Virus record (IMG/VR): IMGVR_UViG_3300044716_000940
Source: an uncultured virus (IMG/VR IMGVR_UViG_3300044716_000940)
Taxonomy: Duplodnaviria > Heunggongvirae > Uroviricota > Caudoviricetes
DNA: 64,000 bases
Strand: one strand, 5' to 3'
Under the pieces are notes generated by a model, which was given only the letters and a program-made list of their open reading frames with translations, had not been told where the DNA came from and made no database searches. The position numbers were made by a program, and so were the translations under genes. Positions 6,124 through 58,580 of the stretch are shown here, piece after piece; the stretch's first letter is position 1, and each line of letters starts with the position of its first letter.

Positions 6124-7176
6124 TTATGGCGAATTGGCGGTAATATCACCGTTAGCAATAATAGTATTAAACCGTACGTCGGTATTTATAGTAGCCTTAG
6201 TTGGCATTGCGGCTTCAAGAGCTGCTACACGAGCGGCTAGCGCGTCGAAGACAGCTTGAGTTATTTCGCCAGCAGGACCTTGTGGGCCTGTAGCACCTGT
6301 CTCGCCTTGAATACCTTGTATACCTTGCGGGCCAGCAACAGTTGAGTCGGCGCCAGTAAGACCAATAGGTCCTTGTGGCCCAACCTCTCCTTGAATACCT
6401 TGAATTCCTTGGTCGCCTTTAGCTCCTTGCGGGCCAACGTCACCTTGCGGACCAACATCACCTTTGTCGCCTTTAGCGCCAGTAGGACCTTGCGCGCCAG
6501 TATCTCCTTTAACGCCTTGCGGACCGACAACTCCCTGTTCGCCTTGTGGGCCAACAATCTTGCCTGCATCTTCAAAAGCATTTAGTGCACTATCCCATAC
6601 CCAAGCGTGTTGCGTATCTTCGAGTATGTATAGGTCACCATGAGTTGCTGTCGCAGGAAGGTCGCCTTGCGTCGCCACGCGAGCAATGAATGTGATACCT
6701 AATCCGGGAATACCTTGAATGCCTTGAGGCCCTTGTGGACCTATAGGACCTTGTGGACCTTGCGGACCGGGCACAATAGATGAAGCGCCAGTAGCGCCTT
6801 GCGGACCGGCTGGTCCTGTATTACCTTGCACACCTTGCGGGCCCATAGGACCGGCGTCGCCAGTAGGACCTACAGGACCGGCTGGGCCTTGTGGACCAGC
6901 ATCGCCTTTAGGACCTTGAACTGGGCCTGTGTTTTGCCATTCAACGCCGTTCCAAACCCATAGCTCGCCATTAATAAGCCAGCCATCGCCAAACTCACCA
7001 GTAGGTGGGAGTTCGGATTGAGAGTTTAAATTACCGTTGATTGTTATACCTACACCAGGAGGGCCAGCTGGACCTTGAGGACCAGTGGGACCAGCGGGAC
7101 CTTCCGGACCTGCAGGACCTTCCGGACCTTGCGGCAAATTATTTAAATCATTAAAATTGTCAGGATATCCAGACAT
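6124..7176 (-). CDS. Collagen-like fibre protein
   Basis: Long Gly-X-Y tracts separated by short W-rich modules; C-terminal ANGDITAN. Confidence 0.85.
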
Positions 7177-11871: not shown

Positions 11872-13602
11872 TTAATCTGCGACCTTGATCGCCATGCCAG
11901 TAATGGAAGCTGTTGTTGATTGTGTGCTTGCGCCGTTTTCCCAAGTCCATCCATAGCTTGGTGAATGCCATGCCCATTGGCCTGTATAGGAGTCAATTGG
12001 GTTTCCTGTAATCCAGCCACCACCATATGTGCCAGTGCGAGCAAATGGGCCTGCGGTGTTTGGTGAGATCTGCATGCTGCCAGTGCCAAGTGCATAGACA
12101 GTGCCAGTTGTGACTGATCCTGCATTTGGGCCGATCACCATCGTGCATGGCACAACTGCTCCAATTGAATTCCAACCAGCTGCGGCACCGTCGCCTTTAG
12201 GACCTTGTGGACCTACTTCACCTTGAATTCCTTGTGGACCTTGCGGACCCACTGCGCCATCTGCGCCAGCAGGACCTTGCGGACCTGGCACTGTAGAATC
12301 GGCGCCAACAGGACCTTGAGGACCAACTTCGCCTTGCGGACCGGCAGGACCTTGTGGACCAGCCACTGTTGAGTCTGCGCCAGCAGGACCAGCGGGACCA
12401 ATTTCGCCAGCAGGACCAGGAGGACCTTGGACACCATCAGTTAAATCACCAGTTACCTTAATAATATAAAGCAACGAATAGTAAGGAGGTAAGTTCCTAC
12501 CTGTAGGATCTTCACCAGATGTTGTTATTCCAGAGACACCACCTTGGACATCAAGAGTGAATGTGTGTGTGTGAGCACCGGCAGTACTAGATGTACCACG
12601 GTCTGCAGGGGTCTGACTACCACCCATATCACTAGCAAAGTCACCGCCCGGAGATACACGTTTACCCAAGACAGTACCGGGAGCACAGCTGGCCTCGCCA
12701 ACTTGGTCACCGTTTAATACGTTATGCGAGTGATCACCAGCCGCATCAGTTGTACCTGTGGCTACAGCACGACTCTGAACGAGCTCATGGGTATGGCTAG
12801 GCAACGCAGCATCTAAGTAGCCACCGATAGAACCGGCAGCATAGAGATTACCAGCGCCAATAACAAATTTGTCGCGTAAGTCTGGACGACCTTCTGCACC
12901 ATCGCATGGCGCCCAACCTTGTGGAACGCTTTCAACTGTGCCAGACCAAATAGCAATAGTGCCAATTGGTGTGCCACCAGGAGCAGGAGCACCTTGAGGA
13001 CCTGTGGCACCTACAATCTTACCAGCATCATCCCACAAACTTGTCGTGCTATTCCATACATACGCGTTGCCTGTATCATCGGCGATGTAGACATCACCAT
13101 GCGTTGCACTAGCAGGCAGAGCAGCGACTGTGGCCACTCGACCTACGTAACGTAAGCCAATACCTTGCGCGCCAGGCTCGCCTTGCGGACCTTGCGGACC
13201 AGGCACTGTTGAAGAGGCACCAGCAGGACCGACTTCACCTTGAATTCCTTGCGGACCTTGCGGACCGACTTCACCTTGAATACCTTGTGGACCACTTACA
13301 GCGTCTACTTGAGACACTGCGATCCAACACCCAACGAGAGTGTCTGGATTTACATACCAAATATATGAGCGACCGGAGTCGGTCTCAAACCACGTCTGAC
13401 CCTCAATAGGAGCGTCAGGAGGAGTAGGACTTGACACAACACCACTACCGCCACCGTTTCCAGTGGCAGCAGTAGCTTGTATGGTACCGTCAGGAAATGC
13501 TAACGGACCGACTAATTGTGCGACATCATCAACCGCAAGTTCTCCTAGAGCCACGACGTTTCCGTCTGCATCATATATTGCTTTTACTAATAGTGCTGTC
13601 AT
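11872..13602 (-). CDS. Collagen fibre protein with tail-collar domain
   Basis: [10 protein letters not shown]...PQGWAPCDG...[10 protein letters not shown] collar motif and [13 protein letters not shown]; Gly-X-Y tracts. Confidence 0.85.
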
Positions 13603-15023: not shown

Positions 15024-15428
15024 TTACGCTGTAACTGTGATAGAGTATGTGTTACCACCAAACTCTGGATGCTCGGCAGTGCCTAAATCTTGACAGACGA
15101 CTTCTTTAGTGCCGTAAGATTTATAGGCATGAACCATAACGTTTGAGCCATAGCCACCGCCTTCGTTTGATGCGCTAGGACCATCCCAGTCCCAGTGGTA
15201 AGTACCAGAACCACCTACAGCAGTAAATTCAAACTCACGAGTGTTGCCAGTTTTGCGCCATAAAATGTTAGACAGAGGACCACCAGCAGCAGGAACAAGG
15301 TAGATGTCTTTCCAGACACCTCCAATGTTCACTTTAGCCGATGTTACAGGTTTCCATGCACCGCCAATATTTACTTTCTCAGGAGTGCCTTCTTTCCAGG
15401 CACCACTTACATTGACAGCTATGGTCAT
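15024..15428 (-). CDS. Small fibre-associated protein
   Basis: Three VNI/VxGxWK repeats then a PKD-like C-terminus. Confidence 0.55.
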   Translation of the reverse strand: MTIAVNVSGAWKEGTPEKVNIGGAWKPVTSAKVNIGGVWKDIYLVPAAGGPLSNILWRKTGNTREFEFTAVGGSGTYHWDWDGPSASNEGGGYGSNVMVHAYKSYGTKEVVCQDLGTAEHPEFGGNTYSITVTA

Positions 15429-18400
15429 GGTGTATACCTCACTAATAATGCACCTTCAGGATAATCTGCAGCAGCAGGCTCAGTAGCTCCATCAGCAACA
15501 GATACTATCGTTGCGCCAGCTTTAGAGTCTACATATTGTTTAGTAGCCGCATGCAATGGATCTGCAGGATCTGCAGGCAACTTAATAGGAACGAGTGAAG
15601 TATGTAAAACATCGTTCACACTAAACCGTTGTTGACCGCCAGCATAGAATGCGAAGCCAGTACCGACTTTCGCTAAGTAACCGCCACCACTACCAAACTC
15701 TAACCCAACGCCACTTGCAGGAGTTGTTATCTTTTGGAAGAATGTAGTACCTGTCGCTGTAGCGTTTAAGATGTTTGTAGTGCCATAGCGAATCGCAACA
15801 CCACCGCTTGCACCGAACACGTTATAAGTAGATGTGCCAAATGTTAGTGATTGCACAGTAGTTGGTAGTGTAATACCACCAGTCATCGTGCCACCAGCTA
15901 ATGGAAGGTAAGCACCTGCTCCACCGCCACCGCCTGCTGCGACTTTATCGTCAACATACTTCTTGGTTGCTGCTTGTAAATCCAAAGTCGGTGCACTAGG
16001 CAACGTAATTGGCTTTGCAGCGTCAAGCGACGTCTTAGTCCATGTGAATAGCGGATCGGAATTAAACTGCCACCGCATGCCACCTTCGCTTGCAAGCATA
16101 GTTAGATTATAGTTGCCAGCAGGTTCGCTACCAAACCGTAAAGGTTGAGTGCCAGAGCCTGTCATTCCTAACATACCAGTAAGTGCTCCACCGGTTAACG
16201 GTAGATAAGCACCAGTTGTGGCGCTTGCTGCAACCAAGTCATCGACATACTTCTTAGACGCCGCGTGCTCATCTAATGTAGGAACCGTGAGGATTCTAAG
16301 TGGAACTGTTGCAGCGACATAGTCTTCGTTGAAACCTAAGACAGATTTTGTGCCATAACGGAGAGCAGTGCTAGTCAAAACGGCTTGGAAATTAAATCCA
16401 TTATCCATCATGAAAGCGACAGCACCATCGCCTTTGACATTGATAGGGCCAGTCATGTCTCCACCAGATGTTGGTAGATAGCCAGTTGGCTTTCCAACAT
16501 ACAGGAAACCGTCAGTGCCTAACGTCGCAGTGTTATCTGCATCAGCAGAAACAGCGGTTGGACCGGCAGGACCTTGCGGACCTTCAGGACCTACAGCGCC
16601 TTCAGCACCAGCTTCGCCTTGTGGACCAGTAGGACCAACGATAGGACCAGCATTTTCAAACGCAGCGGCACCATCGTCCCAAACCCACGCATCGCCAGTC
16701 GCGTCGATGATATACATATCACCTTGAGTGGCAGTTGCAGGTAAATCACCAACAGTCGCTACACGACCTTTAAATGTAATACCTAAGCCAGGAATACCTT
16801 GGTCGCCTTGGTCGCCTTTAGGACCGACATCACCTTTAGGACCGGCAGGACCTGTAAGACCTTGCTCGCCTTGTGGACCAGCAGGACCAACTTCGCCTTG
16901 CGGACCAGTATTACCGATATCGCCTTTAGCACCAACGTCGCCTTGTGGACCGAGGTCACCTTTAGGACCTACTTCTCCTTGAATACCTTGTGGACCAGGC
17001 ACAGTTGAGTCAGCGCCGTTTGCGCCAGCAGGACCTTGCGGACCTTCAGCGCCAGCAGGACCAACAGCACCATCAGCGCCGTCTTTGCCATCTGCACCAG
17101 CAGGACCAGGCACCGTTGAATCGGCACCAGCAGGACCTTGAGCACCATCTGCTCCAGCAGGACCGCGAAGACCATCTTTACCGTCTGCGCCGGCTGGGCC
17201 TTGTGGACCAGCAGGACCTTGAGGACCAGTGTCGCCTTTAGGACCCATAGGACCGCGTGGACCTTGCGGACCAACACTGCCTTCGCCGCCGCCACCGCCT
17301 ACGCTACCAGTCAATGGAGGCGCAATAGCCATCATCAACTGCCAGTTATCGCCTGATTGCTTGATAGCTTCACCAGAGATAAACTCCATTGGAGCCACAC
17401 CACTTACGGTATTCTTAGCGATTGAGACGCCGTTAGTAAAGGTCACCACATCACCACGTTGATACGTCGTATTGGAGTTCCATAGACCACGGAAATCGTT
17501 GATTGGTAATTCAAATTGGTCTAAACGCTCTAACCATTGTTTTGTAACTAAATCCTGAACTAATGAAAGCACAGGCAAATCGAATGAGATACGTGAGCCA
17601 TCGCTCTTGATAAAGCTAAGCGACTCAGTATCGTAATCATATGCAGCGTCAATAATATCTACAGCATCAAAGCCTTTTTCGCCTTGAGGACCTTGGGGAC
17701 CTAAGTCACCTTTGATACCACGTTCACCGCGCTTGCATAGTAAATTCCAATCTGGAGTTGAGCCAGGCTCGCCTGCAGGCTGAGATTTATTTGCTATCCA
17801 AGCAGACCCCGACGACGAGATGACGACGTCGAGTCTTTCATAATTTGTATCAGCATTCCAAGCCTTACGAAACTCAAAGCCACGAAGCACGAGACTATAA
17901 GCTGTGCTATTACCAGGAACGCTATCACTATCTCGATTGGCAACATAATATCTTCCATCATGTTCGACCCACTGACCCGCTTTAATAACAGTATCAGGAG
18001 TCCATTGTTGAACTTTAGCACGATTAGCCTCGGTAATGGCCATTTCTAATTGAATAGATTTGGTATTAGCTACAGCAATCGCTTTATCGAATTCAAAGAT
18101 TTGCTCGGCAACAGCAGCCTTTTGCATATCAATGAGTTCACTTGTTGACTCTTTTACTTCATCCTCTAAAGCAGCCTTTGTGATTGTTAGCTCTTCTTCA
18201 GCAGCCTTTGCAATCAACTCTTGGTTAGCCAGGAACTCATCTACAGAGGCAAGTTTATCTTCAACTTGTGCCTGTGTGTCTTGAGCGAGGGATTTAAATT
18301 GCTCTGTATAGTTGCTATTGTATTCAGCAAACAAAGTGTCTAGGTGAGCTTTGGCAACCTCTGGTGATACTTTGAGAGCATCAATGAGGTCGTTATCACA

Positions 18401-19192
18401 TTTAAATAGAGTAAGAAATTCTTCTGGATCGAAATCTTTACCGTCAACACCATTCTGACCATCGGCACCTTTAATAACGCCTAAGTCGATTGCTTGACCG
18501 TCGCTCATTTCGATTGTGAGAGCACCTTCTTCGGTAATCTCAAAAGCCTTAATACTTAGGCCTTCAGGTCCAATCTCGCCTCGTTCTCCCTGCTCTCCTT
18601 TTTCACCAGTAAGGCCGGTAGGACCTTCTTGACCTTGAGGTCCTGTGATGGATTTAACGAACTCTTCGTCAGATAGGAAACTTGATTTGAGTTCCTGAAC
18701 TGTAACTGATTGACCAGATTCACCTTTTTCTCCTTGCGGACCTTGCTCGCCTTTTTCACCGATAAGTGATTTGACGAACTCAGCGTCGTTGATTAAGACT
18801 TCTTTAACCTGCTCAAGAGTGACTGACTCGCCGGCTTCGCCTTGCTCGCCTTTTTCACCTTGTAAACCTTGCTCGCCTTGGGCGCCTTGCGCTCCTTTAG
18901 CGGCAGCTAAAAATTCTTCATCAGCAATAAGCGATGCGATAGCCTCTTCAACAGAAACACTAGTGCCATCTTTACCGTCAAGACCTTTTTCGCCTTGTGG
19001 ACCAACTTCACCTTGCGGACCTTGCTCGCCTTGAATGCCTTGCTCACCGGCTGGAATCGCTTTAACTAAATCATACACTTCATTTAGTTTTTCGTTAGAT
19101 TCTTGGATAATGTCAAGGACGACTTGGTCCTTTTCATCTACGTATTGTTTGAGCTGCGAAGCAGCGGCAACGATTGCCTTTTCTACTGTCAT
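15425..19192 (-). CDS. Large collagen/coiled-coil fibre protein
   Basis: Probable start MTVEKA at 19192 behind AAGGAA; Gly-X-Y tracts, CBM5/12-like W...Y..GDVV modules, YLPL.GG.MTG and A.TKKYVD fibre repeats. Confidence 0.8.
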   Translation of the reverse strand: MTVEKAIVAAASQLKQYVDEKDQVVLDIIQESNEKLNEVYDLVKAIPAGEQGIQGEQGPQGEVGPQGEKGLDGKDGTSVSVEEAIASLIADEEFLAAAKGAQGAQGEQGLQGEKGEQGEAGESVTLEQVKEVLINDAEFVKSLIGEKGEQGPQGEKGESGQSVTVQELKSSFLSDEEFVKSITGPQGQEGPTGLTGEKGEQGERGEIGPEGLSIKAFEITEEGALTIEMSDGQAIDLGVIKGADGQNGVDGKDFDPEEFLTLFKCDNDLIDALKVSPEVAKAHLDTLFAEYNSNYTEQFKSLAQDTQAQVEDKLASVDEFLANQELIAKAAEEELTITKAALEDEVKESTSELIDMQKAAVAEQIFEFDKAIAVANTKSIQLEMAITEANRAKVQQWTPDTVIKAGQWVEHDGRYYVANRDSDSVPGNSTAYSLVLRGFEFRKAWNADTNYERLDVVISSSGSAWIANKSQPAGEPGSTPDWNLLCKRGERGIKGDLGPQGPQGEKGFDAVDIIDAAYDYDTESLSFIKSDGSRISFDLPVLSLVQDLVTKQWLERLDQFELPINDFRGLWNSNTTYQRGDVVTFTNGVSIAKNTVSGVAPMEFISGEAIKQSGDNWQLMMAIAPPLTGSVGGGGGEGSVGPQGPRGPMGPKGDTGPQGPAGPQGPAGADGKDGLRGPAGADGAQGPAGADSTVPGPAGADGKDGADGAVGPAGAEGPQGPAGANGADSTVPGPQGIQGEVGPKGDLGPQGDVGAKGDIGNTGPQGEVGPAGPQGEQGLTGPAGPKGDVGPKGDQGDQGIPGLGITFKGRVATVGDLPATATQGDMYIIDATGDAWVWDDGAAAFENAGPIVGPTGPQGEAGAEGAVGPEGPQGPAGPTAVSADADNTATLGTDGFLYVGKPTGYLPTSGGDMTGPINVKGDGAVAFMMDNGFNFQAVLTSTALRYGTKSVLGFNEDYVAATVPLRILTVPTLDEHAASKKYVDDLVAASATTGAYLPLTGGALTGMLGMTGSGTQPLRFGSEPAGNYNLTMLASEGGMRWQFNSDPLFTWTKTSLDAAKPITLPSAPTLDLQAATKKYVDDKVAAGGGGGAGAYLPLAGGTMTGGITLPTTVQSLTFGTSTYNVFGASGGVAIRYGTTNILNATATGTTFFQKITTPASGVGLEFGSGGGYLAKVGTGFAFYAGGQQRFSVNDVLHTSLVPIKLPADPADPLHAATKQYVDSKAGATIVSVADGATEPAAADYPEGALLVRYTP

Positions 19193-19286
19193 GTTTCTAT
19201 TCCTTATCGTGAAGCCGATTGTGATTATCTGGAGGTTGTATAAACAACTTTCCAAAGACCGTGATTAGCGGCCTTCAGAAAATCGT

Positions 19287-22247: not shown

Positions 22248-22271
22248 GGGGATTCCTCCTTCCGATTATAG

Positions 22272-22673
22272 TTATACTGTTGGTGCTGGCTCTTCTGGAG
22301 TTGGCTCAGGTGTTGGCTCTGGAGTTGGCTCAGGTGTTGGCTCTGGAGTTGGCTCTGGGGTTGGCTCTGGAGTTGGCTCAGGCGTTGGCTCTGGCGCTGG
22401 CCTAGGCGTCTTTGGTGGAACTGGTGTATTACCAGACAAAGTCTTGATGCCTACAGTTGCCAACGAGAAATCCGCACCAGCTGGAGCTTTCACCGCAGCG
22501 GCGTTATTGTCAGGTGTAGGTGCGGTGGCAAAGTTTGTGCCAGCCATATCTAAGGCGTCGCCAGATGCTACAAAAGTCTTGGCTACTTTAGGCGGTAGGC
22601 CGATGATTTGACCTGCATGCCATACGTTACCTTTAGCGTCGGTAACTGGTTTGAGTGTTAAAACTGCATTCAT
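22272..22673 (-). CDS. Hypothetical protein with (PEPT)n tail
   Basis: 133 aa with RBS; about 8 PEPT repeats encoded by a 12-bp tandem repeat. Confidence 0.65.
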   Translation of the reverse strand: MNAVLTLKPVTDAKGNVWHAGQIIGLPPKVAKTFVASGDALDMAGTNFATAPTPDNNAAAVKAPAGADFSLATVGIKTLSGNTPVPPKTPRPAPEPTPEPTPEPTPEPTPEPTPEPTPEPTPEPTPEEPAPTV

Positions 22674-43240: not shown

Positions 43241-43250
43241 GAGGGTGCTC

Positions 43251-43482
43251 TAAGTTATTGATTCTAAAGGCTATTTTAGTGCCCTAAGTTATTGATTTTG
43301 CACAACTTTCCATGGAGCTACTAACGCCTAAGTTATTGATTCTATTGACTATTTTACCCACGGGCAGCCTCTCTAAGTTATTGATTCTAAACGACTTTTA
43401 CCGAAAAGCTAAGTTATTGATTCTAAAGGCTTTTTTGACAGATTTTGGTCATTTTGGGCAGCCTCACCCTAAGTTATTGATT
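43251..43482. repeat. Array of six TAAGTTATTGATT repeats (IHF consensus)
   Basis: Copies start at 43251, 43285, 43329, 43374, 43410, 43470; reverse complement AATCAATAACTTA fits WATCAANNNNTTR. Confidence 0.8.
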
Positions 43483-43567
43483 TTAAACGACTTTTTTGTG
43501 CCTGAGGTCCATAACCAAGGAAAGAGTGAGAGTATTGACTGAATGATCCTTATTTATTATTAGATTA

Positions 43568-44794: not shown

Positions 44795-44965
44795 ATGGAA
44801 TTAGCATTTTCTATCGTGTTTATCGTTGTTGTGATTGCCGCTGTATTGGGTTATATCGCAAACATCGTTAAACTTTTTTCACAGCTACAAGTGGACGGTA
44901 AAACAATTGCAAGAGCTTGTGGAGTATTTATATTCCCACTAGGAGCAATCTTAGGATGGTTCTAA
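44795..44965 (+). CDS. Small membrane protein (56 aa)
   Basis: MELAFSIVFIVVVIAAVLGYIANIVK...PLGAILGWF; AAGGA RBS. Confidence 0.6.
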   Translation: MELAFSIVFIVVVIAAVLGYIANIVKLFSQLQVDGKTIARACGVFIFPLGAILGWF

Positions 44966-44966
44966 C

Positions 44967-45017
44967 AATCTAACTGACGAGTCGGTAACGACGAAACCAC
45001 GAAAGTGGTCTTAGATT
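44967..45017 (+). ncRNA. Hammerhead ribozyme HHR2 (type I)
   Basis: AAUCUAA-CUGACGA-GUCG(GUAA)CGAC-GAAA-CCAC(GAAA)GUGG-UC^-UUAGAUU; cut after 45010. Confidence 0.95.
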
Positions 45018-48320: not shown

Positions 48321-48427
48321 CCACCGTTGGAGCCATCGCTATGGCGGTAAACAACGTCCTTGTATTAGTTGACTCCCTTTGTTGACGAAATGCGAGCGCT
48401 TTCGCAGGTTGAGCGTTATCAATTTGC

Positions 48428-48476
48428 CTGTCCATGGATGTGTGTCCATGCTGATGAGCCACAAATGGCGAAACAG
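48428..48476 (+). ncRNA. Hammerhead ribozyme HHR6 (type III)
   Basis: CUG-UC^-CAUGGA(UGUGUG)UCCAUG-CUGAUGA-GCCA(CAAA)UGGC-GAAA-CAG; short stem III; cut after 48432. Confidence 0.88.
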
Positions 48477-48497
48477 ACTTATTATAAAGGAAATAAA

Positions 48498-51699: not shown

Positions 51700-51740
51700 A
51701 AACGGTTCACTCGGTTAATCCCGGGTGAGCTACTATCCCC

Positions 51741-51753
51741 TAAGTTATTGATT
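51741..51753. promoter_or_regulatory. Isolated seventh TAAGTTATTGATT (IHF consensus) site
   Basis: Same 13-mer as the 43.25-43.48 kb array, between a hairpin and the next RBS. Confidence 0.55.
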
Positions 51754-51767
51754 ATAAAGGACTTATT

Positions 51768-52157
51768 ATGAATAAACAGTATACAAAAGACAAACAAAGA
51801 GCTAACAACTCTCCGCTAGCTTACGCAAAATATCGATATAATGCTCAAAAGCAAGCTGCCAAAACGCGAGGAATTGCTTGGGAGCTTGAGCCTTATAAAG
51901 ATGAAGTAATTTTTAAAATTGCTACTGCGGTAGTCTGTGCTGAAAGCGGGCGTAAACTTGTTCACCAAATCGGCAAGTCTAATTCTTATAAACCTAGCAT
52001 CGATCGCATAACAAGTAAAATAGGATACACCATATCAAACATTCAAATAACAACTTCTAGCATTAATGTAGCTAAGATGTCTCTAGAATCTAAAGAGTTT
52101 TACGAGATGTGTAGAGACGTTGTTGCACATTCAGCTTCTAAATATGAAAGGCAATAA
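51768..52157 (+). CDS. Putative HNH-like endonuclease
   Basis: AK.RGI.W, C..SG, PSIDRI.S..GY...NIQ...N..K. Confidence 0.65.
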   Translation: MNKQYTKDKQRANNSPLAYAKYRYNAQKQAAKTRGIAWELEPYKDEVIFKIATAVVCAESGRKLVHQIGKSNSYKPSIDRITSKIGYTISNIQITTSSINVAKMSLESKEFYEMCRDVVAHSASKYERQ

Positions 52158-52576: not shown

Positions 52577-53056
52577 ATGATGAATATCTTTTATTTGCAC
52601 GAAGATCCTGTAATGGCGGCAGAAATGCATTGCGACAAGCATGTATGCAAGATGATTATCGAAACGGCTCAGATGATGAGCTCTGTTTATTCGCGATATG
52701 GTTGTGAAAATCCGCCATACAAACCAACGCATCAAAAGCACCCATCAACTGTGTGGACTGGCGACAGCCAACTACACTATAACTGGGTGCGCACGCTTGG
52801 TTTGCAGCTTTGCCGTGAATACACCAAGCGCTATAATAAAACCCATAAGACTGAAGCTGTTATAAAGGCTTTATGGTTAGCGCCAAAAGATATGCCGATA
52901 TTGGCATGGCAAGATCCGCCACAGTGTATGGATGCGGAGTATAAGCGTGATAATACGATCGAAGCTTATCGTAATTATTATATAATGGCGAAAGCTAAGT
53001 TTGCCAAATGGGCACACGCAACAAAGGCACCGCAATGGTGGCCTAACACAGTATAA
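52577..53056 (+). CDS. Pyrimidine-dimer glycosylase (DenV)-related family protein
   Basis: MNIFYL..DP..AA..HCDKHV.KMI.E.AQ, YK.TH..HP..W, EY..RY.K.H. Confidence 0.6.
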   Translation: MMNIFYLHEDPVMAAEMHCDKHVCKMIIETAQMMSSVYSRYGCENPPYKPTHQKHPSTVWTGDSQLHYNWVRTLGLQLCREYTKRYNKTHKTEAVIKALWLAPKDMPILAWQDPPQCMDAEYKRDNTIEAYRNYYIMAKAKFAKWAHATKAPQWWPNTV

Positions 53057-53100
53057 CTGATGAGTCCTAATGGACGAAACGCCGTGATGGCGTCTTATAC
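53051..53100 (+). ncRNA. Hammerhead ribozyme HHR8 (type I)
   Basis: GUAUAA-CUGAUGA-GUCC(UAAU)GGAC-GAAA-CGCC(GUGAU)GGCG-UC^-UUAUAC; cut after 53094. Confidence 0.95.
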
Positions 53101-53116
53101 ATTATAAAGGAGAACT

Positions 53117-54670
53117 ATGATAGATGAAATCAAGCAAAAGTTATCCATCGCCAAAGTAGAACTAAAGACAGAGCAAGCAGCTTTGCGCTCTTTAGTGGCG
53201 GTAAGAGATAGCGCAAAACGCGCAGCGAAAACAGCTGTTATGTTTCGTGGCACTCCGTTTTACTTCCGTATCGGAATGGACTTCCGCGGTCGTATGTATT
53301 ACAAAGGCGCTCACTTGAATCCTCAAATGGGCGATGACATTAAGTCAACATTAGTCTTAGCAAATAAAAAACCTTTAGGTGCTGATGGCTATAAATGGTT
53401 ATTGTGGGGAGTAGCATCCTCAGCTGGTTTCGATAAAGCTGATTTCCAAACACGTGTTAATTACACATTGGATAATTTATTCGAAATCAAAGAAGCAGTG
53501 GCTAATCCGAATGAATCTGAGTTCTTTAAGAAAGTTCACTCTGATGGAGAGCCTGCTTTATTCTTGCAGCGAGCCGGTGAGTTGGTGAAAGCGCTTGAGT
53601 CGGGTTCGATTCAGACGTATGAGACCGATATCACTATTGCTATGGACGCTACTTGCTCTGGCTTACAGCTATTATCCGCTGTGGCACGCGACGCTGAAGG
53701 CGGTTCGTTAGTGAATATCACAGCGACTGCTGAAGGTCAAACAGAAAAGCGAGATGTGTATAGCAAGGTTTGCCAGCTTATCTTAGAGAAGTATGCTGAT
53801 TTGCCGGATAATTTCTTTGCACAGTGGATTACCAAATATGGTCTTCCGCGTCGCTTTACAAAGAAAGTGGTAATGACATTGCCATACTCTGCTACGGTTC
53901 GTGGCGCGATCTCTTATGTTCAAGAGGAATTGTATGGTAATCCTGAGAAAGGTGCTTTGCCATACGATCTTCCAACTGAGCCAGCAGATCGCTTATCGCT
54001 ATTAATGGCGGCTAGAGCGTTAGCACATATTGATCGAGTGGATGAGGATATCTCAACTGACTCGTTATACTATGTGATGGCTACTGTGCTTGCTAAAGAT
54101 ATGCATGAGACTTGCCATAAAATCCTGCCAGCAGCTATGAAGCTATTGGACTTCTTTAAATCGACACCAAGTCATTTATTTGACCATGCGATTTGGAATA
54201 CTCCTGATGGCTTGCATGTTAAGCAGCTTTATGGTGTGAAAGAAGACTTTACTTTCCACTACAAGTTTATGCACACTGATCCAGCGACTGGTGAGATTGC
54301 TCCAACAACTATATTCCGTAAATATAACTATTTGGATCCGAGTGAGAAAAATAGAAGCAAAGCCGCTAATGGTATGCCACCAAATTGGGTGCACTCATTG
54401 GACGCTACGCTAGTTCGACGTGTGGTGTTAAAGTCTCCATTCGACATTGTGTGTATTCACGATTCGTTTGCAGCACACCCAGCTGATTGTAATAAATTAG
54501 CGTCGATTTTACGTGAAGAGTTTGTATGGTTAATTGAGCAAGATCCACTAGGAACTTTGATTAAACAGCTGAACGATCAAGTTGGCGCTCAAGTATTCTC
54601 CACTGAAGGATTGATGGTGAATACGCTAAAGACCGATGATCCACTAAGATCGGAGTTCTTATTCTGTTAA
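53117..54670 (+). CDS. T7-like RNA polymerase, C-terminal catalytic subunit
   Basis: DFRGRMY, DATCSGLQ (motif A), R..TKKVVMTLPY (motif B), PNWVHSLDA, IHDSF (motif C); lacks the N-terminal domain. Confidence 0.93.
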   Translation: MIDEIKQKLSIAKVELKTEQAALRSLVAVRDSAKRAAKTAVMFRGTPFYFRIGMDFRGRMYYKGAHLNPQMGDDIKSTLVLANKKPLGADGYKWLLWGVASSAGFDKADFQTRVNYTLDNLFEIKEAVANPNESEFFKKVHSDGEPALFLQRAGELVKALESGSIQTYETDITIAMDATCSGLQLLSAVARDAEGGSLVNITATAEGQTEKRDVYSKVCQLILEKYADLPDNFFAQWITKYGLPRRFTKKVVMTLPYSATVRGAISYVQEELYGNPEKGALPYDLPTEPADRLSLLMAARALAHIDRVDEDISTDSLYYVMATVLAKDMHETCHKILPAAMKLLDFFKSTPSHLFDHAIWNTPDGLHVKQLYGVKEDFTFHYKFMHTDPATGEIAPTTIFRKYNYLDPSEKNRSKAANGMPPNWVHSLDATLVRRVVLKSPFDIVCIHDSFAAHPADCNKLASILREEFVWLIEQDPLGTLIKQLNDQVGAQVFSTEGLMVNTLKTDDPLRSEFLFC

Positions 54671-54688
54671 AAATTTTATGAAAGAGAG

Positions 54689-55597
54689 ATGCTTATGGTA
54701 GAAACGACTAGAGAGTATCAAATGGAGCGAGAGTTCGAAATGATTAAGCTTGGGCTGCAAGTCCAGCAAAATCTAACGGTTAATCTTCGCATTGCATCCA
54801 TCGAATTTAAACGTGAAATCGAGCAATTGACACAAGCTATATTAACATGGAGAAAAGCCGATCGCTTTCGAGGTAGTGAGCGAAAGGCTTATTCTACGTT
54901 GTTGGATACTTTGCCAGCTCAAGTGGTTGCAGAGAATATTATTTATGCAATCCTTGAAACTCACTTAAAAACTGACGATGGCGCACCAATAACTTTCCAG
55001 TTTATTGTGACAAATGCTTTAATATTAAGCCGATTTAAGGCATTATTGCCAAAAGAAGCTACGGCTATTCCTCACCAATTTAAGTTTAAAATTGTGGATA
55101 TGCTTGTAACTAGAGGAGTGTATTTATTATCCTCAATCTTTGTGGTGAAAAAGCAATACCAAGAGATGGCGTCTATTGAGCTTACAACTCGTGCTAAAAA
55201 TCGTTTAGCTGAGGTAGACAGCCGATCGCTTATGTTTGATGGCCCAATGCACTGCAAGCCAGAAGATTGGGTTTCTGTATTTAATGGCGGTTATTTAACT
55301 TCTGAAATGCAGAAAACTGCACCATTGGTTCGGAGCTTGCAACATGACTTTAAAGAGCTAGTGGCCATTGATCGTTCTTTACAAGCTCACCCGGAAATCT
55401 TGCAATCCGTTAATAAACTGCAAGGCGTCTGTTTTAAAATCGATGAGAATTATGAGCAATATCATAATACTGTGGATAATTTTAGAATACACGCAATCAA
55501 AAAGGTTGAGACTAACTTAACCAAGCTAAAAGCCGAAATTCTTAAACTCGAGCAAGAGTTAAAAGAAGCTGAGGCCAGCACAGCTGATGAGACTTGA
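54689..55597 (+). CDS. T7-like RNA polymerase, N-terminal subunit
   Basis: PMHCKPEDW....GGY....PLVR...QSVNKLQ...FKID resembles T7 RNAP PCVVPPKPW..GGGY...LVR...AINIAQ...WKIN. Confidence 0.8.
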   Translation: MLMVETTREYQMEREFEMIKLGLQVQQNLTVNLRIASIEFKREIEQLTQAILTWRKADRFRGSERKAYSTLLDTLPAQVVAENIIYAILETHLKTDDGAPITFQFIVTNALILSRFKALLPKEATAIPHQFKFKIVDMLVTRGVYLLSSIFVVKKQYQEMASIELTTRAKNRLAEVDSRSLMFDGPMHCKPEDWVSVFNGGYLTSEMQKTAPLVRSLQHDFKELVAIDRSLQAHPEILQSVNKLQGVCFKIDENYEQYHNTVDNFRIHAIKKVETNLTKLKAEILKLEQELKEAEASTADET

Positions 55598-55627
55598 TTA
55601 GTCGAAACGCCGTGAGGCGTACTGTGC
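55578..55627 (+). ncRNA. Hammerhead ribozyme HHR9 (type I)
   Basis: GCACAG-CUGAUGA-GACU(UGAUU)AGUC-GAAA-CGCC(GUGA)GGCG-UA^-CUGUGC; overlaps the last codons of the RNAP N-subunit gene; cut after 55621. Confidence 0.93.
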
Positions 55628-58271: not shown

Positions 58272-58517
58272 ATGAGCACAAACAACTACTTCGTAATCCG
58301 CGCAATCAAAGAAAAAGGCGTAGCAGCCTCTTCGTATATTGCAAAGAAATATAAAGTCAAAAACGTATCAGCCACTGTATCTGCCTTGCGCAAACGTGGT
58401 CATGAGATTGTAACACTCGCCGAAGGCTATGCATTACCGTTCGGCACGCGCGATGAAGCAGCTAAATTAAGTAAGACTGCGCGCAACAAAATTGCCAAGG
58501 AATTTGGCTTAGCATAA
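58272..58517 (+). CDS. Small HTH-like protein
   Basis: Start MSTNNY; IA..Y...NVSATVS.LR..G..I. Confidence 0.55.
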   Translation: MSTNNYFVIRAIKEKGVAASSYIAKKYKVKNVSATVSALRKRGHEIVTLAEGYALPFGTRDEAAKLSKTARNKIAKEFGLA

Positions 58518-58520
58518 TCA

Positions 58521-58580
58521 GTCTGACTGAAGAGTCCTTAATGGACGAAACCGCCACTCGGGAGAGTCGCGGTCTCAGAC
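58521..58580 (+). ncRNA. Hammerhead ribozyme HHR10 (type I)
   Basis: GUCUGA-CUGAAGA-GUCC(UUAAU)GGAC-GAAA-CCGC.ACUC(GGGA)GAGU.GCGG-UC^-UCAGAC; cut after 58574. Confidence 0.93.

Follow-up and report, generated by a model that had tools for sequence, protein, structure and literature searches.

The subject of this analysis is a 64,000-nucleotide (nt) stretch of DNA, here called the window, from an uncultured virus of the Caudoviricetes (IMG/VR record IMGVR_UViG_3300044716_000940), and within it a pair of adjacent plus-strand genes that together encode an RNA polymerase (RNAP) of the bacteriophage T7 type, with its two parts in reversed order. The first gene, the C-half (53117-54670, 517 amino acids (aa)), encodes the second thumb helix, the palm and the fingers, as recognised by Pfam RNA_pol, phrog_414 and hhalign. 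The second, the N-half (54689-55597, plus strand, 302 aa), encodes the N-terminal promoter-binding and melting domain together with the first thumb helix. The two are separated by an 18-nt plus-strand spacer (54671-54688) that contains a GAGAG stretch resembling a Shine-Dalgarno (SD) sequence, and they are bracketed by two plus-strand type I hammerhead ribozymes, HHR8 (53051-53100) and HHR9 (55578-55627), the latter containing the stop codon of the N-half. An earlier note on this DNA had read the locus as a circularly permuted, two-subunit T7-like polymerase that the two ribozymes would excise, and perhaps circularise, as a unit.

The C-terminal half

The C-half matches Pfam RNA_pol (PF00940) at 7e-60 and aligns to positions 337-816 of phrog_414, a family of length 816. 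In an hhalign comparison with T7 gene 1 (probability 99.9), its residues 46-517 pair with T7 RNAP 412-883. DFRGR at residues 55-59 aligns to T7 DWRGR, and motif A (MDATCSGLQ), motif B (TKKVVMTLPY) and motif C (IHDSFA) are each aligned to their T7 counterparts; the specificity-loop region is also located in this protein. At the other end, the tail FLFC aligns to T7 FAFA (880-883), and the stop codon follows directly in all eight C-halves aligned. DFRGR and motifs A, B and C are unchanged in the same 8/8, and the C-halves compared have common start and end alignment columns and all finish in FLFC. The 517-aa open reading frame (ORF) thus carries all of the catalytic motifs and begins about 55 aa before DFRGR, as the earlier note had claimed. 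Its residues 1-45 correspond to the second half of the thumb. The AlphaFold 2 (AF2) model of the C-half, which has an N-terminal helix at residues 2-38, is poor (predicted local distance difference test score (pLDDT) 53); it was too poor for a fold search, and sequence profiles were therefore relied on. Database searching with the C-half yielded 18 clusters at 49% identity or more, all of 466-532 aa and with PF00940 only. Beyond these, identity falls to 33% or less, and most matches are enzymes of about 800 aa with both Pfam domains.

Five further proteins of 489-558 aa (P0048, P0089, P0104, P0110 and P0112) have PF00940 only and are 26-29% identical to the C-half. They begin upstream of the thumb, P0104 and P0089 near T7 residues ~300-320, and may represent T7-like RNAPs that are truncated or split elsewhere in the chain, or proteins with mis-called starts.

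The N-terminal half and the break site

The N-half, which is 300 aa long when counted from the alternative start ATG at 54695 that most gene calls use, aligns to phrog_414 positions 201-322 (3e-14). Its residues 185-267 pair with T7 269-346 in hhalign, and a profile built from 14 sequences of the N-half family matches T7 RNAP chains in the PDB at 5e-8 (T7 269-352). The AF2 model of this protein has a pLDDT of 72. In a second-look structural comparison with that model, the top 40 rows are all T7 or mitochondrial RNAP and the first unrelated row has a Z of 7.8; the best fold match has a Z of 12.3, with a root-mean-square deviation of 2.8 over 133 residues, and superimposes model residues 32-177 on T7 66-258. 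Foldseek's own E-values for the model are weak, 5e-3 at best. The matching region includes a beta-hairpin at model residues 151-165. The model ends in a long helix, residues 255-301, with four clear a/d heptads, and the same helix precedes the end in all stand-alone N-halves. The phrog_414, RPOL_N, hhalign and fold matches agree with the earlier suggestion that the 302-aa ORF is the missing N-terminal part, and the comparison with T7 RNAP found homology where the note had allowed that there might be none.

A word-indexed search with the N-half returned three proteins, 100, 84 and 70% identical. An exhaustive profile search gave 18 hits at E<=1e-3: 12 of 284-311 aa, one of 249 aa, two fragments, and three canonical enzymes of ~810-840 aa that match weakly at their residues 129-302. 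A separate search for longer (fused) members of the N-half family gave none, which we rate as weak evidence. G001, the virus record closest to the window (26.8 kb), contains nothing that matches the N-half, and a scan aimed at the DNA of the 84% and 70% identical relatives found, among viral contigs, the window's own contig only and, among metagenome and genome contigs, nothing.

At the start of the N-half gene (54678-54691), an ATG at 54678 marks where the 84% identical relative begins with MKER...; in the window this start is out of frame through an apparent 1-nt difference, and the N-half start has therefore moved to 54689 or 54695.

In T7 RNAP, the N-terminal domain comprises residues 1-325 and the thumb residues 326-411, with the palm beginning at 412, according to the domain boundaries given in PMC5524818. 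On this scale the N-half consists of the N-terminal domain and roughly the first half of the thumb, reaching about T7 380, and the C-half covers, by alignment, about T7 367 to 883. These alignments place the break at the thumb tip, at about T7 365-385. Between them, the two proteins account for all parts of a T7-type RNAP, without overlapping or leaving a gap.

Gene order, conservation and selection

The reversed order is a stable property of these genes. The C-half immediately precedes the N-half both in the window and in 17/17 related loci that have both genes, namely 10/10 viral-contig relatives (L003-L012) and 7/7 metagenome loci (L083-L089). Among these 17, L085 and L086 duplicate L008 and L009, and L088 duplicates L011. 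The fragment L090, which has the N-half only, stands outside the counts of gene order, as do the distant N-half-like proteins P0020, P0023 and P0024, which have no loci, and P0002 and P0003, which are known as proteins only. Among 69 more distant loci collected with the same profile, 66 have both matches, all 66 of them in one uninterrupted frame that runs N-then-C, and three have one match. The spacer between the halves is 6-9 nt in the relatives, and the C-half stop is usually part of the N-half SD sequence: the stop TAG lies within TAGGAG, which is followed after 3-4 nt by the ATG.

The ORF boundaries are the same in about 12 distinct lineages, down to 33% identity for the N-half and 51% for the C-half. 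Both halves are under purifying selection, with ratios of nonsynonymous to synonymous substitution rates (dN/dS) of 0.02-0.11 across the nine comparisons, all of close pairs, that allowed an estimate of dS; a tenth pair was saturated. In a quick IQ-TREE analysis of 67 C-part sequences, from which partial matches of <430 residues, identical duplicates and the window's own copies (L001/L002) had been left out, the 12 distinct permuted sequences are separated from all the others by a branch with an SH-aLRT support of 99.

One pair of relatives is a mosaic. DNA identity of L004 and L007 is 94-99% in the flanks and over most of the C-half but drops to 55-85% in the region (L004:1500-2700) that comprises the last part of the C-half and the entire N-half. 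The C-half proteins are 99% and the N-half proteins 79% identical, with dS values of 0.26 and 1.4, respectively. Such a pattern suggests that the N-half gene was exchanged by recombination.

Hammerhead ribozymes

A motif scan of the window detected ten type I hammerheads, a count to be read as at least 10, all of them on the plus strand between 44276 and 59094; on the minus strand the same scan detected none. HHR8 and HHR9 each have the conserved core CUGANGA...GAAA, an NUH cleavage triplet and three helices, with stem I open, and in each the minimum-energy fold is the hammerhead three-way junction (z -2.8 for HHR9). HHR8, with a predicted cut after C53094, scores 36.6 bits against Rfam RF00163, where the gathering threshold is 34, and is the only one above it, several other window hammerheads falling below. 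HHR9, whose cleavage triplet is GUA, is predicted to be cut after A55621 and shares sequence with the final 7 codons of the N-half; its core is complete and all three stems are present, yet it is not among the Rfam hits at E<=10. The covariance model R2, built from the relatives' hammerheads only, finds all ten, nine at E<=1.3e-8 and the tenth at E 0.011, and gives HHR8 66.1 bits and HHR9 48.7 bits (E 1.4e-11). Among 18 hammerhead copies, 11 of 15 pairs have changed on both sides; the copies had been preselected by a pairing filter, hence the accompanying figure of 100% pairing is circular. Both elements, which the earlier note had identified together with their cut sites after 53094 and 55621, appear on the strength of core, stems, fold and R2 scores to be real hammerheads, and they would be expected to cleave themselves in vivo.

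Five of the ten cut sites, that of HHR8 included, lie 20-27 nt before an SD-led start codon; cleavage at HHR8 would leave a 22-nt leader with the SD sequence AAAGGAG ahead of the C-half start. This arrangement recurs in the relatives, where the C-half start is preceded by a hammerhead at 20-25 nt in 13/15 loci with upstream sequence and at 370-540 nt in the other two (L083 and L087). In none of the 17 related loci is the N-half directly followed by a hammerhead; the nearest one downstream is about 3 kb away, so that the ribozyme-bounded unit of the relatives takes in the single-stranded DNA-binding protein (SSB), endonuclease I and primase-helicase genes. HHR9 is, since it has no counterpart in the 17 loci, a lineage-specific addition. 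In this phage the ribozyme bracket is genuine, though incidental to the split.

Three minor observations concern the same elements. The N-halves P0002 (84% identical) and P0003 (70%) finish in ...TTEET and ...TTEEA, tails for which suitable codons would spell CUGAAGAG, a core variant of the hammerhead at 58521; since these tails could encode it, HHR9 may be common to the closest relatives. A type III-like hammerhead match at 48425-48479 reaches 41.7 bits, the gathering threshold being 48.5. Weak extensions resembling RAGATH-1-hammerhead, at 58488-58579, 53024-53099 and 44943-45015, score 30-34 bits against a threshold of 56.3.

A probable two-subunit polymerase and its alternatives

Taken together, these findings are best explained if the locus encodes a two-subunit T7-type RNAP that is split in the thumb, swapped in gene order and inherited within a phage clade, with the hammerheads as a separate layer; we give this reading a probability of about 0.8. 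The product would most likely be an obligate heterodimeric T7-like RNAP with a two-chain thumb. According to this proposal, an ancestral single RNAP gene was broken inside the thumb, and its pieces now stand in swapped order. The first gene would provide the body of the polymerase, from the second thumb helix through the palm and fingers with the catalytic motifs to a free C-terminus, and the second gene the N-terminal promoter-binding and melting domain up to the first thumb helix. Co-transcribed and translationally coupled, the two products would assemble 1:1 through their two long thumb helices, and the complex would resemble T7 RNAP with a nick in the tip of the thumb. The C-half's own stop codon would preserve the free C-terminus that T7-type enzymes need, a terminus described as highly sensitive to alteration in T7 RNAP (PMC4299498). 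The permuted gene probably stayed split and was not fused because a C-to-N fusion would bury this C-terminus.

The arrangement may have evolved by tandem duplication and later loss of the two outer halves, or else by fission and a later swap of the pieces; the loci examined include no intermediate. A single origin would have been followed by inheritance in a clade of siphovirus-like phages of lake water, the swapped order being a historical event that was kept because it is harmless. In the ribozyme layer, the type I hammerheads, at least 10 in number, would cleave a long plus-strand transcript immediately ahead of selected genes, which would thereby acquire short, defined leaders. The hammerhead before the RNAP is the conserved one, and that after it the lineage-specific addition.

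Several points weigh against this reading. The hydrophobic moments of the break-end helices exceed those of shuffled sequences, though not significantly (p 0.065 and 0.15), and the poor model of the C-half leaves its N-terminal helix weakly supported. The N-half match to Pfam RPOL_N (PF14700; 5.5e-7, 29.7 bits) lies 0.4 bits under the cut-off of 30.1. In the tree, 53/55 canonical rows come from one clade; with a quick search and so narrow an outgroup, the single origin is not rigorously rooted. The longest contig that carries the N-half protein measures about 80 kb, of which the window covers ~64, and a second, intact RNAP may exist elsewhere in the genome. Finally, that the two proteins bind one another and transcribe from specific promoters is what we infer from their sequences. 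The earlier claims on these matters have held in part. The break ends that had been described as amphipathic helices are helices in the models (N-half 255-301, C-half 2-38), but their moments are not significant and one of the two models is poor. Similarly, the permuted heterodimer survives as a two-gene T7-like RNAP in reversed order, a heterodimer most likely, and not as an excised or circular unit defined by ribozymes.

A bolder version of the two-subunit proposal, which we regard as speculative and on balance doubtful, takes the N-terminal domain to be a swappable, sigma-like module that docks on a two-chain coiled-coil thumb and is exchanged by recombination. The idea of a swappable N-half module comes from the mosaic of L004 and L007, which suggests exchange between phages. 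Promoter recognition or escape from inhibitors could then evolve by subunit swapping, and in the window's own lineage HHR9 could make a discrete, perhaps circularised, two-gene mRNA.

An unlikely alternative is that the C-half is a complete polymerase by itself and the N-half a separate, dissociable factor, whether a sigma-like initiation or specificity subunit or a regulator. All catalytic motifs and the specificity-loop region are indeed in the C-half, the N-half gene has been exchanged independently in L004 versus L007, and the N-terminal domain of T7 RNAP is known to refold at promoter escape. Against this idea, the break parts the two thumb helices, so that neither protein has a whole thumb, and the two genes are always adjacent and translationally coupled (17/17). 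The N-half, moreover, carries the region resembling T7 66-258, including the beta-hairpin, that T7-type enzymes need for initiation.

Very unlikely is the notion that the order of the genes is corrected at the RNA level. Under this scheme, HHR8 and HHR9 would excise 53095-55621, and an RtcB-type ligase would circularise the product, placing the N-half ORF before the C-half ORF. Both hammerheads are credible, and the sequence between their cuts comprises just these two genes; hammerhead products bear the ends that RtcB uses, and, judging by sequence, pairing in the hybrid stem I at the junction would be poor, so that the circle would not be cut again. The earlier note's figure of 46 nt for the spacer between the halves in such a circle is arithmetically right (24 + 22 nt). 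This spacer is nevertheless out of frame, and both the N-half stop TGA (55595-55597) and an in-frame TGA (55613-55615) persist in it; with two in-frame stops and a length that is not a multiple of three, the halves would stay separate ORFs in a circle and would not yield a single-chain enzyme. Bacterial ORFs with their own SD sequences require no particular order in any case. The conserved overlap of C-half stop and N-half SD sequence shows that the linear C-to-N order is the translated order, other gene blocks of the same operon are also bracketed by hammerheads, and the 17/17 loci with the permuted pair have no counterpart of HHR9. Circular and spliced products of phage hammerhead arrays have been considered earlier by Perreault et al., who searched such arrays for circles and splicing without detecting any (PMC3088659). 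With hammerheads throughout the operon, HHR9 not conserved and a circle that brings no fusion, the RNA-circle idea is unsupported, and the special excised or circularised RNAP unit of the earlier note is not upheld.

A decaying, rearranged RNAP relic or a chimeric contig, either of which could yield a split and a reversed order, can in practice be dismissed on the evidence of conservation and selection, given intact ORFs with the same boundaries in about 12 distinct lineages, the low dN/dS and invariant catalytic residues, and contigs from two other runs that bridge the C/N junction (X3, a 1569-nt piece, and X2, a 448-nt piece).

Comparison with known systems

T7-type RNAPs are textbook single-chain enzymes and major biotechnology tools, and to our knowledge the only natural two-chain form of them that has been described is of the N4 RNAPII type. 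N4 RNAPII consists of gp15 and gp16, which align to non-overlapping parts of T7 RNAP and jointly hold all its motifs; its N-part is encoded first, as the earlier note had correctly stated, and the split falls after DX2GR (PMC4496689). The window proteins resemble this enzyme, as it is described there, in covering non-overlapping parts of T7 RNAP, and the C-half weakly matches the solved gp16 chain 6dt7_B. In contrast to N4, the DFRGR motif belongs to the C-half, the cut lies inside the thumb and the C-part comes first. The window halves also fit the general T7-type phrog_414 far better than the N4-like phrog_2166.

The single-chain enzymes of the Autographiviridae and of siphoviruses such as Colwellia phage 9A share with the window pair the same domains, the same motifs and a C-terminus at T7 883, and the gene neighbourhood, with ligase, gp2.5-type SSB, endonuclease I, primase-helicase and DNA polymerase, is likewise T7-like. 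They differ in that the window enzyme is made of two polypeptides with a stop between them and in permuted order, whereas the Colwellia 9A RNAP is one gene of 878 codons. Even the best phage matches reach only about 32% identity for the C-half and 26% for the N-half.

Engineered split T7 RNAPs provide a third comparison. Cuts at surface-exposed seams are tolerated in them, and the fragments reassemble, better so when interaction domains are added (PMC4299498). The thumb is not named as a seam in the available text of that paper, where the word "thumb" has 0 occurrences. The window split, unlike the engineered ones, is natural, conserved and combined with a swapped order, and its natural thumb helices may take the place of the added zipper domains. 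No description of a thumb-split or order-swapped phage RNAP was found in open-access papers and preprints (in PMC4819975 the word "split" has other meanings), and a natural T7-type RNAP with both properties appears not to have been described before in that literature.

The hammerheads, too, have precedents. Perreault et al. (2011) described transcripts of phages and prophages in which several hammerheads flank single genes or short blocks of a long transcript, and proposed processing into operon- or gene-length mRNAs (PMC3088659). The window cuts fit processing of this kind, to short defined leaders for selected genes. Compared with the arrays described there, the window array is denser (at least 10 in 15 kb), is all type I with one shared architecture, and has one hammerhead that overlaps the end of a coding sequence. 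The analogy behind the circle idea is with the permuted tRNA genes of a red alga, which mature through a circular RNA so that their halves are re-ordered at the RNA level. The swapped gene halves are alike in the two cases. In the tRNA case, one continuous functional RNA cannot be made without the circle; here, in contrast, each half has its own start and stop, and the proteins would be unchanged.

A conserved cut at the thumb tip with swapped halves would represent a second, independent way in which the T7-type fold tolerates fission, and a rare example of permutation at the gene level. It may offer a ready-made, self-assembling split site for engineered split polymerases, and a concrete system for asking whether the N-terminal domain works as an exchangeable initiation module. 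The dense, uniform set of hammerheads could similarly serve as a natural model for ribozyme-defined mRNA leaders in phage operons.

Genomic setting

The window is organised in two blocks of opposite strand, and the sign of the GC skew is opposite between them. The minus-strand block (1-43000) encodes the tape measure, major tail, portal and major capsid proteins, collagen-like tail fibres, the large terminase, ribonucleotide reductase and thymidylate synthase. The plus-strand block (43700-64000) is a T7-like replication set, comprising an ATP-dependent ligase, the split RNAP, a gp2.5-type SSB, endonuclease I, primase-helicase, DNA polymerase and exonuclease. The 24 runs that contain the window stretch are labelled lake water metagenome, and none is on record as RNA.

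Six plus-strand copies of the 21-nt motif CTAAGTTATTGATTCTAAAGG, with no more than 3 mismatches, are present at 43250-43502 and 51740-51760, where 0.01 would be expected by chance. Five of the six lie in the divergent intergenic region that heads the plus-strand operon and the sixth just before the ORF at 51768; they may be promoters, operators or origin repeats. In the minus-strand block, the tail-fibre genes (6124-7176, 11872-13602 and 15425-19255) are rich in collagen-like Gly-X-Y repeats with a 9-nt period, which give rise to dozens of direct-repeat families. A 12-nt unit resembling GGAGTTGGCTCW is repeated 9 times in tandem at 22270-22413, within a small minus-strand ORF that adjoins the portal gene.

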